Shown here: in pieces, positions 21,001 through 27,000 of the stretch
Layout: the number at the start of each line of letters is the position of its first letter
Position numbering within the stretch: the stretch's first letter is position 1
Origin: a virus
Lineage: Duplodnaviria > Heunggongvirae > Uroviricota > Caudoviricetes
Reading direction: 5' to 3' (one strand)
IMG/VR virus record: IMGVR_UViG_2609460156_000001
Location: 25,814-89,813 of that record
DNA length: 64,000 nt
Made by a program: the position numbers

Positions 21001-24000
21001 CGCCGACGTGATCGCCCGCGTTCAACTTCCGGAGCATCGTGCTTGATCGGAAATTGCCCGCCCCTAGGTTGTACACAAACGACGTGTACGCCGTTCGTTC
21101 GCCGTAGGAAAGGGGGACAGTAACAGCGCGGTCTACTGCAGCCTGTGCGGCCGCCATGTCCTTCCCAAGCAGATAGCTGCATACGTCGTCGGTGTAACGC
21201 GTACCCAGCTTTAGAGGCTTCCCGTCCGGCCCCGTTGAATCGTGACCCGCGCACACCGCAAGGCGGCCTACAGGGTCCACGTATACATCGTTCTTCCATC
21301 CTTCAAACCCCGCAATCATCGTTGCGGCGGCCACGGCGGCTACGCCTGCTACTCGGGCAACGATAGCCCGGTTCAATCCGTTCAGCAGAACTCCTTATTA
21401 ATATTTGGCAAGCAAAAAGCCCGCGCTAACTGCTCGCAGGCCATTACAGAATCACATTGATTTGGGTGCTATTTCGTCCCGATTGCGGGGTACGTGAGGC
21501 GGTCCAATGCCGCAAGCATGGTCTGTAGCGGTACGTGCGTGTAGCTTACGCGTCCGCTCGATCCCTCGGCGGCATGACCCGTGATAGCGTCCGCCGTCGC
21601 TTCGCTCACGTCCCTGGCGGACATTGCGGAGCGTATCCAATGCCGGAACTTGTGTGAGCCGTGCAGGCGGCCGGAAGGCAGTTCCAAGTGCGCGCGGAAT
21701 GCTTTGAACCATTTCGTAGCCGCATCGGATGGCCCCCTCTTGCGACCGGACATAGATACAAGGGCGGCGGCGTCCTGGCGCGTCTCGCTCATTACGTCCG
21801 CTAACCAGGACGAGAACCAGGGGTCAGCTAACAGGTTCGTGGCAAGCGGCACAATGCGCTCGGATGAGTCCGTCTTGACGCGTCCTGCCTCCTCCGCGAT
21901 CCGGATAGCTGTAATACCGTCATGGATTAGGAAATCGCTGCGGCGCAATTGCGCTATCTCCCCGATACGCGCCCCCGTGTGCAGCAGGATCATCAATAGT
22001 GCCCGGCCGTCTACCGGCTTTACAGATACCCACTCAGGCACGCTTCCCATATCATTTGAGAATAGCGCGCTCCCAAAGATGGAGCGCATTTGCACATCCG
22101 TCCACGGCTCCCGCGACTTAGAGCCGACCGTCTTATCGAAAGTCAGGTCGAGCGGATTCCGGTCGATAAGATCGTCCTTTACCGCGACGTTGAGTAGCGC
22201 CGTGATAAGCGCCGCGTGATTAGCCGCCGTCTTTGCGACGAAGCCCCGCGCATCCGTATCTAGCAAGAATGCGACGAATTTAGCCCCGTGCGCCTTGGTG
22301 AGCGCGCGTAGAGGAACAGTCCCGCAAGCCTCCTCAAATAGCTCGATGGCGCGCCATGCCTGCCCCACAGACTCCCGTTTAGGGGAGTTTCGGCGAGTCC
22401 ATGACGGTACGACGTGGCGGAGATTCTTGATGTGGTCCGGCGCGTCCAGGCGAGTGACTTCCCGTCGAGAGGAGGCAGCCTTAGCTTGCGGAGCAGGGTG
22501 GGACGCGGCAAGGAACGCCGACATTGCAAGCTGGTCCACGTGAGGCAAAGAGGAGACCCGTAGAAGTTTGTTTGTATTCGCGCGAGCCACGCGCTCCCCG
22601 GCGTCTACCGCCTTGTGATGCTCGCGGTTTGCTGAATATTCGTGCTTCCAATCCTCTGTGTGTTCCACTTCCTTACGGGGAAGGTGGAATCGAGTGGGCG
22701 CTTGCCATTCGGCGGACTTGTGACCCCGTAGTTCGGAGAATTCCCGGTTCGTCTTTGCCGTAAGTTCAGCAGCGCGCGCCTTGGCCGTCCCGTAATCGGT
22801 TGTGCCGAGAGACGCCAATATGACTTTTACGGAGTAATGCGAGAGGAGGTCTACAGGGACTTTGCGGCGGAAGTAATAGACGTTTCCGCGTTTCTGGGTA
22901 TTTGGAATCACAGACATAACTCCGGACTGTATCACTAGGTACACTTGTCAGGTACACCGGCAATACAGTCCGTAAGTCATTGATTCGCTTGATTTTCTAA
23001 TGAAATCAAGTAGATAAGTGGTCGGAGCGATAGGATTCGAACCTACGACCCTCTGATCCCAAATCAGCAGCTAGCACATTTATGTAAGCCTTGCCAGAAA
23101 AGGCCATAGGGCAGATTATGTCTAATGTTCTGCTCAAAAAATGAGCACGTAGCGACGAGGCTTTGCGGGCAACAGCCGAGCATTTATTAGACACGATCAA
23201 GCAGATTTTGGCAGTCTTAGACGCAGGTCTGCCACCGGCACATTGCGCTTTTTGATGTATGTTTCAGTCATCTTCTCGTCGGTGTGCGCGGCGGCGATTT
23301 GGAGCGCCTTCACGTCATACCCGGCACGTTCGCCATCGGTGAGCGCTTTGGCTCGGATGTCCTTCACCGTGTATCCAAAGTGCGACAGGTTGGCGCGTTT
23401 GGCAGCTGTTTTCCACGCTTTCAGGATCGTGTTCGCAGCGTACATCTTCCCCTTCCGGGTGTGGACGACTGGCATATCACCGATTGTCGGCCGGCCATCA
23501 ATTTGCTGAATCCGCAACAAGACTTCGTTGATCTCGGGCGTGATCTTGAAATCGACCCGTACACCGCTCGAGTCCGCCGTTTTGCTCGGGACGAAATGAA
23601 TTACCCCGGCCTCGCGATCCACGTCTGACCATTTCAGGGTCCGGATCTCGGTCGAACGCTGCGCAGTGAGGTAGCAGAGATCGATGATGCACTGCATCAT
23701 AGGCCCGGTGGGTACGTCAGCTACCACTTCTTTCTCGCTGTCCGTCCCCGAGTTCAGCTTGTACGTAGTCTCAAGCATTGCGTTCCGGATTGCAGAAAAA
23801 TGCGCGTCGGTGATGTAGGTTTGCCGCGGTTTCGGTTTCTTCAGCTTGACTTCTCTGCACGGATTCGTATCCCGCTTCCCCTTGTCGACGCACCATTGAA
23901 AGAAGCCAGACAGGAATGCGCGCATGACCCGCTGCATATGTAGTTTTCCGGCGTATTTCACCTTGAGCCAGTTATGGACGTGCGTTGGCTTCACGTCTGC

Positions 24001-27000
24001 GACGTTGACCTTGCGAAATCCATTGCCGGCGTAATCTCCATACTTCGGCCACGCCTTTTCCTTATGCAGTAGTTTGCTCTCACGCACGTACTGATCGATC
24101 AGTGGACGCATATCTCCAGATCCTTCTGGACGTTCGCGTTTTTTCCGCTCTTCCGCCAGTCGCTCGACAAGCCTTGTTTCGTCGTCGGTCAGTTTGCACA
24201 GGCGAATCCATTGTCCTGAAACGGGCTCGCTCCAATACCACGCGCCATGCTTGGCGTACACGCGCGGATACTTCGCTTTCTTGCGATTGGTAGCCATCAG
24301 TCAAAGCAGAGTTCAACAGTAGAAGTTTCGGAATGCCCGACGAGGCCGGCCCTTTTTGCTTGGAGTGATTCGAATGTTGACCAAGTCATGATGACGGCTC
24401 CGTTTGCGGCTGTGACGACGTTGATTCCGAACGTCGCTTTGAACCAGTCAGCTTGTTTCGTGTATCGCTTTTTGCCGGTGACGATCGCGAGGTCGGCCGG
24501 CGTCATCAGGCGTTCGGTCATGCTACGATTCCTTTCAGTTTTGTTTCAAAAATTGATGAGGTGGCCGTGGAACTTGAGACGATCAAGCTGTGCGCCGAGT
24601 GCACTGAACTGCATGGGCAACCGTCGACGGTCAAGCCGACGCATCTCGCGATGGTCGGCGCCGGCGTGTTCCAAGGCGAATGTCGAGAAGAGCACTACGA
24701 GTGCTCGACGTGCGGTGCTGCGTTTGCCCGTGTCTTGACGGGCGAGACAGCGTCCCGAGTGTGGATTGCGGTGAATTCAATCCAGCACTGACGCTCACGC
24801 ACGTTGCGCCGTCAGACTCATGAAATCCGGGAGTGCTACGATCGCCCCGGTTCGTTTCATGATCGCATTCAAATGCAGCATTTGTTCACGATTCGCGGCT
24901 ATCACGTCGACTGCACGCCGCGCGCGACTGAAGACGGTCAGTTCGCCGCACAGGTGACGTTCACCTACATTGGCTACAACCCGGAAGCGTCGTTCAAGAA
25001 TCTCGGGACGTACGAAACCGAAGAGTCGGCCGTCGAGCGGGCGCGTTCGTTCGCTGTCGAGTGGCTCGCGCGATACGGTTGAGGCCGGCTATGCTCGAGC
25101 GATTCACGTACCGCGGCTACGACGTTGAGATCGAGGCGATCGAGCGCGAGGGCGATGCGCTCGGCCCGCGTGTGCTGGTCGGCATGTCGATCGTCCGCGT
25201 GCGCGACGGCGAGGTGCTGTTTCGCGAGTCGCCGATTCGTGTGCTGCCGGCCGGCGTGACCATCACGTCCGAACTGGCGATCGAGTACCGAAGAGACGAG
25301 GCTCGAAGACGGGTAGATGATGCGACGGCTCGGTAGTGCTTTCTTGAGTCTCGCAGTTTTCGAGGCTGGCGCGCTCCATCGGGCCGCTGAACTAGATCGG
25401 ACGCTCTTTCATCGATCTTCCGGGAATTCGTTGTGCGTGCGGCCGTCGAGCAGCCGGCCGGCGGCTTTCTTGCCGACGCGCTCTGCATAATGGACGCGTT
25501 CGCCATTGAAGCCGTGTCCGCCTGCCAGATTGATCCAGCGGCCGGGTAGGCGAGCCATGCGATCGCACCGACGATAGTCCGGATCGTCCCGATCGCGGTC
25601 GTAGGCGAGAGAGTGTTCACCCCATTGCTTGAACAGGAACGGCACATCTGCGGCAGCGCACTGGTCGCGCAGCGACCGAGCCCAGTCGGGATGCATCGGG
25701 CGGGCGCCGTGGCCGCTTTCGCCGCCGGCGATCACCCAATGTAGGCCGCCGTCGGCTGGTCGGCGTAGTTCGAACTGGCGCTTGCCGCCGTGCGTGCGGA
25801 AGTTGCCGGTTGGCTCGCTGTAGATGTGGAAGCGCAGGTCAACCGACCCAAGCAGCGGCTCCATCGACAGGAAGCGTACGCGCGCGGGTACTGCGAGCAG
25901 CTTCGGGATGTCGCGGTCGGCCTCTTCCTGGTTGACGATCGTCGCGCCGATCCAGACGTTATCCGGCAGTCGGTCGATTCCGATCTCGCGTAGCATCGCC
26001 GCGACGTTGCCGATGCGCTTCGTCAGCAACAACCAGTCGAGGTTTGGCGTGTCGGCGATCAGGCGGAACAGGTCCGCGCGCCACGCCGGATCGACAGTGT
26101 TGTCGAAAACGTCGGCGAGCGACGCGCAGAACACGCGCTGTCGGTGGCCGTGGATTGCATAGAACGCGCCGTCGCGGTTCCACTTCATGGGCTTGCGCCA
26201 GTTCGCGGGCGACGTGCGCCGCTGCGGCGCGCCGGGCCCCCAATTGACCGCCGTGCCGCCGGAAAAGCGCGCATTGCGCGCCTCGGCATAACAGTGGTCG
26301 CATCCCGGACCGACCTTCTGGCAACCTTCCCACGGGTTGAACGTGTGGTCGCACCATTCGATTTTGCTGTTCTCGCTCACGATTTGCTCCCTTGGGTGCG
26401 GGCGGCGTCGAGGGCGCATTCCACCTCGTCTACATCTGGCAGCGGCTCATTGCCGCTGCGCCAGCGCTCACGTAGTTCAAGCGCGTACGTAGCCGCATCG
26501 ACATACCATGCTCGCTCCCGCAGCCAGCGATAGCGCTCTGCGCAGAGCTTGTCGTCATCCGTCACCTCGGAGCGCGGCTCCGGCTGGCTCGGATGGGGGG
26601 CGAGAATTGCTTCCAGTTCTTCCGCAAGCTTGTACTGGCAGGAATGTCGAGCCTCGTCTGCTGCGCGGCTGATCACCTGACATTCGCCGACCGTCAGCGC
26701 GTCGTTATTCGGCATGGTCGACTTCCCTCACTTCTTTGATGAAGTCGGCGGCATCCTCAGACGACTCGAAGAAAAATGCCTTATTTGTTCCGCCGTCGTA
26801 GACATGCGCCCATTTCTTTAGACTCGGCTCGTAAGCCTGCACGCTGTACTTCGGCTTGAGCGTGTTCATGTCAAGCCACGGATGAGTGCGCATTCTCCAT
26901 TCCAGGCGCACGCTGCTGCGCGCGATTCCAAGTTGCCTCTTAGCCATGGCTGGCTCCCTCGGCAGTTGACTTGCCGCAAAACGGGCAGTAGCTGGAAATG

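Follow-up and report, generated by a model that had tools for sequence, protein, structure and literature searches.

Why should a piece of a tRNA gene lie between two integrase genes? The question is raised by a stretch of 64,000 nucleotides (nt), hereafter the window, which covers positions 25,814 to 89,813 of the IMG/VR record IMGVR_UViG_2609460156_000001 (Caudoviricetes). Two tyrosine integrase genes of its minus strand, integrase A (21469-22917) and integrase B (23197-24297), stand on either side of a 3' fragment of a proline tRNA gene with the anticodon UGG, tRNA-Pro(UGG). A preliminary description of this DNA proposed that two unrelated prophages, here called A and B, are integrated in tandem at one tRNA-Pro(UGG) locus. 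The evidence assembled below makes it very probable that two independent temperate phages inserted in series at the single tRNA-Pro(UGG) gene of chromosome I of Burkholderia pseudomallei 1710b, and that the fragment is their shared junction.

The window belongs to this chromosome: a CP000124.1 coordinate equals the window position plus 1,741,219, an offset set by the exact product of integrase A and by a 75-nt sequence printed with its coordinates in Table S2.2 of Tuanyok et al. 2008 (BMC Genomics 9:566, PMC2612704). A free phage genome with its attachment site (attP) between two integrase genes was considered and rejected, since the window lies on a 4.1-Mb chromosome and its two sides match different phages. 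The locus itself is already known, having been published in 2008 and 2010. Tuanyok et al. described it as island GI6b of strain 1710b, a prophage like that of 1026b "but two-fold larger", and treated the whole 108 kb as one island (PMC2612704). Ronning et al. 2010 (BMC Microbiol 10:202, PMC2920897) reported instead a prophage PI-1710b-1 "immediately followed by" PI-1710b-2 and "separated by a tRNA pseudogene", the former bounded by an exact 23-bp repeat and the latter by tRNA-Pro-2 and an exact 49-bp repeat. GI6b is the sum of PI-1710b-1 (prophage A) and PI-1710b-2 (prophage B): the genome, the coordinates, the 49-bp and 23-bp repeats and the adjacent prophages are the same as those discussed here, and nothing differs in substance.

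The tRNA-Pro fragment and the phi1026b-like prophage

The fragment occupies positions 23019-23067 on the minus strand (49 nt, CTGATTTGGGATCAGAGGGTCGTAGGTTCGAATCCTATCGCTCCGACCA) and comprises the 3' strand of the anticodon stem, the loop UUUGGGA with the anticodon UGG, the variable loop, a complete T-arm, the 3' acceptor strand and ACCA. At 49 of 49 positions it matches the intact tRNA-Pro(UGG) found in this genome and in relatives, and this identity ends abruptly. The perfect match to a tRNA 3' half noted in the preliminary description is thus upheld, but its length has to be reduced from 50 to 49 nt, as position 23068 departs from tRNA-Pro (G in place of T). Sub-patterns of 47 and 25 nt taken from the fragment occur once each in the window, where shuffled sequences predict 0 occurrences. 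Nested within the fragment is a 23-nt core (23019-23041, minus strand; TTCGAATCCTATCGCTCCGACCA) made up of the T-loop, the 3' strand of the T-stem and the acceptor end, which corresponds to the tRNA-proximal junction of prophage A, while the complete 49 nt correspond to the attachment (att) core of prophage B at its tRNA-distal junction.

One possibility is that the fragment is a tRNA gene in its own right, either a pseudogene decayed in place or an odd but functional tRNA. The deposited annotation does contain a 75-nt "tRNA-OTHER" here, BURPS1710b_1654, also called "tRNA-Pseudo-2" (23019-23093, minus strand), which Table S2.2 of Tuanyok et al. (PMC2612704) places at 1764238-1764312 and whose printed sequence is the minus strand of the window from 23093 to 23019; moreover, the Rfam tRNA model RF00005 gives a weak local match to the region that reaches into a D-arm-like part (model positions 9-63, 21.6 bits for a gathering score of 29). 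Nevertheless, ARAGORN detected no tRNA in the whole 64-kb window, and an Rfam scan of the whole window at the gathering threshold returned nothing. A 77-nt stretch at the fragment folds no better than shuffled sequence (z = 0.13), the would-be 5' acceptor strand CAAGGCT leaves three of its seven positions unpaired, and alignment with a real tRNA-Pro shows that the D-stem is lost. The switch from 49/49 identity to sequence unrelated to tRNA is sharp, and this upstream sequence is that of a phage arm, 100% identical to the corresponding arm of the attP of phage phi1026b. A tRNA gene at this position is therefore scarcely credible. This agrees with the earlier claim that the upstream DNA can form neither an acceptor stem nor a D-arm; as to a complete tRNA at 23019-23095, which that description had named as evidence to the contrary, ARAGORN made no such call and the deposited 75-nt call is that of a pseudogene. 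As judged by its sequence, the fragment is an att core and not a functional tRNA gene.

The affiliation of the right side of the junction is clear. The fragment is, base for base, the attP of phi1026b (NC_005284.1, 28275-28323), which is annotated as identical to the 3' region of the B. pseudomallei proline tRNA (UGG). The integrase-proximal arm of this attP (23068-23196, minus strand) is the one that is 100% identical to phi1026b, and it is also found in single lysogens and in IMG/VR proviruses. The arm leads to integrase B (23197-24297, minus strand), a phi1026b-type tyrosine integrase of 366 amino acids (aa) with the Pfam domains Phage_integrase (PF00589) and Phage_int_M (PHROG 1), equivalent to phi1026bp34; its previously reported coordinates are confirmed, although the gap between its stop codon and the core measures 129 nt, and not 130. 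The exact product of integrase B is present in 744 blocks of the sequence collection. Farther to the right, window positions 23014-47614 correspond to phi1026b 28270-51910 at 99.0% identity, and positions 55774-64000 correspond to phi1026b 1-8227 at 99.7%, with the phi1026b cos end and terminase start at 55774. By its collinearity and near identity, integrase and attP included, prophage B is a phi1026b-like element (Stanholtvirus). Its part within the window is 23014-64000 (plus strand), and it continues for about 20 kb to the right of the window up to the intact tRNA-Pro.

The homology to phi1026b breaks 5 nt beyond the end of the tRNA, at 23014. These five positions past ACCA (23014-23018) read CTTAT on the minus strand, both in the window, where they belong to the arm of prophage A, and in the opposite arm of the phi1026b attP (the left arm of phi1026b at attP being CTTATACAAAAGG). 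The same positions read AAATT in the native chromosomal flank and CGAAC, CCTAC or CCAAC in other elements of the A type. The sharing of CTTAT by the arm of A and the phi1026b arm is likely due to chance, two of the five positions being typical of A-type arms anyway, and it is the reason why the phi1026b match begins at 23014 rather than at 23019.

The outer end of prophage B can be predicted from its collinearity with phi1026b, which places that end, and the intact tRNA, at window position 64000 + (28275 - 8227) = 84048. In Table S2.2 of Tuanyok et al. (PMC2612704), the intact tRNA-Pro BURPS1710b_1702 is located at CP000124.1 1825267-1825343, which corresponds to 84048-84124; prediction and published position coincide exactly (1825267 - 1741219). 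The same table lists a 23-bp repeat at CP000124.1 1717329, about position -23,890 of the window. These coordinates, together with the collinearity, bear out the expectation that the remaining att copies are to be sought beyond the window and the intact tRNA on its right side. In a search aimed at the distal junction of A by homology to the Tlde1-domain protein of single lysogens, a cluster representative 93% identical was retrieved and set aside, as it is not the 1710b sequence.

The site is also known with prophage B and without prophage A. According to a 2026 paper (PMC13026187), prophages of the phi1026b/phiBP82.1 type sit at tRNA-Pro(UGG), always with the same integrase. In most of the genomes read that carry integrase B, the 49-mer is followed by the native chromosome (AAATTCCCG...) with a Tlde1-domain gene, PAP2, ppx, ppk and phoR, and the native flank of single lysogens is AAATTCCCGCAGTAATTCAGTGG. 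The tRNA-distal junction of prophage B in 1710b thus abuts another prophage where that of phi1026b-type lysogens abuts native chromosome, and integrase A follows the 49-mer only in contigs of the 1710a/b type. An IMG/VR scan for the 23-mer next to the native flank found nine proviruses, all of them B-type junctions with the full 49-mer, and no A-type junction.

The native flank has a feature of its own. In a single lysogen (L006, 11531-12703), it contains the Tlde1-domain (DUF2778) gene, a small open reading frame (ORF) and a 68-aa N-terminal fragment of an integrase (Arm-DNA-bind_3, weak), possibly what is left of an earlier island at this tRNA. Over 10 kb, the flank showed no further repeat of the tRNA end.

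Integrase A and its target

Integrase A is a tyrosine recombinase of 482 aa (21469-22917, minus strand) with an N-terminal DUF6538 followed by Phage_int_SAM_5 and Phage_integrase domains (Pfam, with a PF00589 match; PHROG 1). That a tyrosine integrase of prophage A adjoins the fragment is therefore correct, but its start, first placed at GTG 22944, is to be moved to ATG 22917, 101 nt from the fragment. This ATG is preceded by GGAG and is conserved in four relatives of integrase A, and the 482-aa product is recorded in NCBI genomes. An exact look-up of the 491-aa form starting at GTG 22944 returned no record, and this GTG falls within a conserved repeat of the leader. The exact product of integrase A is rare: it is encoded on CP000124.1 and two sister assemblies, and the contigs that carry it number only four in total.

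The DNA between the fragment and the start codon (22918-23018, minus strand) combines the integrase-proximal arm of prophage A with the leader of integrase A and is conserved across five elements. It comprises an inverted repeat (TTGATTTC/GAAAATCAA), direct repeats GTGTACCT at 22950-22957 and 22937-22944, and the GGAG ribosome-binding site. The leader is about 77-82% conserved in the five elements, whose integrases share only 55-68% identity, and the GTGTACCT pair, GGAG and ATG are invariant. The GTGTACCT repeats could be arm-type sites of the integrase or promoter/operator elements.

Relatives of integrase A that share 68%, 65%, 56% and 55% identity with it were found in a Logan assembly, Burkholderia sp. 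22PA0106, a betaproteobacterial metagenome-assembled genome and Paraburkholderia sp. EG285A. All four (at least 55% identity) have an intact tRNA-Pro(UGG) about 100-110 nt upstream of the integrase gene and in the same orientation; in the two closest, genes for a lysozyme and a T7-type RNA polymerase come after the integrase gene, an arrangement shared with the window. The conserved leader begins in all five elements directly after ...CCGACCAC, from which it follows that what borders the fragment in the window is the arm of prophage A itself. In addition, the degraded A-type element of Burkholderia sp. 22PA0106 is terminated, 11.4 kb downstream, by 27 nt that directly repeat the tRNA 3' end (AGGTTCGAATCCTATCGCTCCGACCAC). 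A search of IMG/VR for relatives of integrase A found none, and one of the GTDB representative genomes gave a single locus.

These comparisons bear on a second scenario, in which prophage A, or its integrase alone, came to lie beside the junction of B through a rearrangement or through insertion at an unrelated site nearby. The rarity of the exact integrase A, with its four contigs, would fit such an event, and the distal end of A is known from the literature rather than from direct reading. Against it stand the four of four relatives that are placed and oriented in this way next to an intact tRNA-Pro(UGG), with the leader starting at the same point, the 27-nt terminal repeat of the 22PA0106 element, and the 23-bp repeat reported for the opposite end of the prophage in 1710b (PMC2612704, PMC2920897). 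This scenario appears very unlikely, and the use of tRNA-Pro(UGG) by prophage A is supported by the comparison of these loci.

The backbone of prophage A is related to phages quite different from phi1026b. When positions 1-23000 of the window were compared with Burkholderia phage vB_SBP9, the identity was 88% over 71% of the query, with a matched span of 1392-21424, and five sister phages match too. In vB_SBP9, vB_SBP39 and their relatives (GenBank PQ789808, PV072743 and others), the replication and transcription module is 88% identical to that of prophage A and the gene order is the same up to the lysozyme gene. Prophage A is accordingly classified as a vB_SBP9-like temperate phage with a T7-type RNA polymerase, a class assignment based on its early and replication part in the window, its structural half being located outside. 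The vB_SBP9-type phages differ in having their own integrase, of 333 aa, and the homology stops at 21424, just before integrase A. An Rfam search beside the vB_SBP9 integrase detected no tRNA-like attP. Window positions 21424-22917 and vB_SBP9 26040-27071 provide an example of integrase-cassette swapping, with two integrase modules on one backbone.

The affiliations of both sides allow a third scenario to be evaluated, that of a single composite prophage of double size in which the fragment is an internal relic without any role as a boundary. No host gene separates blocks A and B, which adjoin directly, and Tuanyok et al. treated the 108 kb as one island (PMC2612704). Nevertheless, the sequenced phages matched by A and by B are different, each block has an integrase of its own beside the fragment, the phi1026b homology ends 5 nt beyond the tRNA end, prophage B occurs alone at this site in many genomes with the native flank after the 49-mer, and A-type elements occur alone at tRNA-Pro elsewhere. 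Ronning et al. also split the region into PI-1710b-1 and PI-1710b-2 (PMC2920897). The two blocks share no similarity in blastn, and integrases A and B can be aligned by BLASTP only at E = 8. A composite prophage is thus highly improbable, and the earlier view of two unrelated prophages in tandem at one tRNA-Pro(UGG) locus is supported by the identity of the fragment with the phi1026b attP and with the position of the A-type relatives beside tRNA-Pro(UGG).

Order and mechanism of integration

In tyrosine integrases that target tRNA genes, attP carries a copy of the tRNA 3' part, and recombination rebuilds the tRNA from the phage copy, so that the old 3' part comes to lie at the prophage end away from the tRNA. 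Projected from what is established for such integrases and elements, the catalytic mechanism at the 1710b locus would involve two overlapping targets. The block of identity of B measures 49 bp and starts in the anticodon stem, and that of A measures 23-27 bp and starts at the T-loop. Since the core of A is nested in that of B, one and the same fragment serves both prophages, B with its tRNA-distal and A with its tRNA-proximal junction. Read along the minus strand, which is the sense of the tRNA, the locus would consist of the intact tRNA-Pro (about 20 kb beyond the right end of the window), prophage B (about 61 kb), the 49-nt fragment, prophage A (about 47 kb), the 23-nt repeat (about 24 kb beyond the left end) and the native chromosome. 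Each prophage may be able to excise separately: loss of B would leave the tRNA followed by A, and loss of A would leave the tRNA, B, the 49-mer and the native flank.

Some observations weigh against serial insertion at a single tRNA gene. The outer att copies, 20-24 kb outside the window, are known from the two papers and from collinearity. PI-1710b-1 is given as 47.0 kb in the table and as 41.4 kb in the text of Ronning et al. (PMC2920897), and with two printed sizes the distal boundary of A is not entirely settled in print. According to Tuanyok et al., experimental data on the inducibility of the 1710b prophages are lacking (PMC2612704). Finally, a relative sharing 48% identity with integrase A is located at a tRNA-Leu(UAG), which implies that the specificity for tRNA-Pro(UGG) belongs to the close clade only.

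Two orders of arrival would produce the same map. Phage A may have integrated first, B then entering the rebuilt tRNA; or B may have integrated first, A then entering the displaced fragment. We weakly prefer the arrival of A first, on the grounds that canonical tRNA targets suffice for it and only one outcome is possible. The reverse order has a more specific version, in which the displaced 49-nt fragment is a working secondary attachment site made by B and used by A. The fragment displaced by B does keep the whole 23-27-nt core of the A type as well as the native downstream flank, but this version seems unlikely. If it were true, lysogeny by one phage would multiply the landing sites available to an unrelated phage, and recombination by integrase A between the outermost 23-nt copies could excise A and B together as one 108-kb circle.

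Gene content and significance of the locus

The part of prophage A that lies in the window (1-21468, plus strand) holds early and replication genes, and the prophage continues for about 24 kb to the left. Among the genes called in CP000124.1 and assigned with Pfam and PHROGs are those of a DnaB-like helicase (4849-6144), an ATP-dependent ligase (6871-7791), an exonuclease (12401-13336) and a lysozyme (20879-21319, minus strand). The module also includes a family A DNA polymerase (8696-11131; PF00476, E = 2e-29) and the T7-type single-subunit RNA polymerase (16886-19195; PF00940, E = 4e-64).

Prophage B is about 6 kb longer than phi1026b, window positions 47614-55774 standing in place of about 3 kb of the phage. 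This segment of about 8 kb has a low guanine-plus-cytosine content (about 0.53) and contains an ORF (50358-53819, plus strand) for an 1153-aa patatin-like phospholipase/DUF3376 protein; it is the published "moron" of PI-1710b-2, with the gene BURPS1710b_1675 (PMC2612704, PMC2920897). Directly upstream of integrase B, a 74-aa ORF (24297-24521, minus strand) is the counterpart of phi1026bp35, a DUF4224 protein, and is found in all integrase B loci. An Ead/Ea22-like ORF (27194-29167, minus strand) encodes 657 aa in the window and in CP000124.1 and 397, 527, 642 or 684 aa in other genomes with the identical integrase B; its length thus varies among phi1026b-type prophages, in whose early region it lies. 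The LysR-family regulator and the MFS transporter encoded at 35061-37659 (plus strand) resemble cargo more than genes with a phage function; both are annotated in phi1026b and phiBP82.1 as well. Within the ORF 43974-45020 (plus strand), a 21-bp unit (AAAGGGTGCAAATGACGACT) is repeated 3.6 times at 44363-44438. This ORF lies in the part of prophage B where the phi1026b annotation has a replication initiation O-like protein; if it is that gene, the repeats would probably be origin iterons by analogy with lambdoid phages.

How does the locus relate to what is known of tRNA genes as integration sites? Tandem integrative elements at tRNA and tmRNA genes are reportedly reviewed by Williams (2002, in Nucleic Acids Res) and catalogued by Islander, as are integrase subfamilies that use different sublocations of the tRNA, the anticodon loop or the T-loop and 3' end. 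In such tandem arrays, serial insertion leaves an intact tRNA and a staircase of 3' fragments of unequal length, each beside its own integrase, here of 49 and 23 nt. The 1710b locus does not differ from them in principle and is a textbook example. Tandem occupation of tRNA genes being well known, and this instance being already in print, the locus carries little weight as a discovery. What is added here is the corrected start of integrase A, the kinship of prophage A with the vB_SBP9-type phages, comparative evidence for the targeting of tRNA-Pro(UGG) at the T-loop and 3' end by the clade of integrase A, and the native flank seen in single lysogens.

The locus offers a worked example of two unrelated integrases on nested cores of one tRNA, one of 49 nt from the anticodon stem and the other of 23 nt from the T-loop. 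It is also a reminder that the annotated "tRNA-OTHER" pseudogene of the 1710b genome is a prophage junction. Finally, the comparative tie between the close clade of DUF6538 integrases and tRNA-Pro(UGG) helps to delimit similar prophages in Burkholderia and Paraburkholderia.

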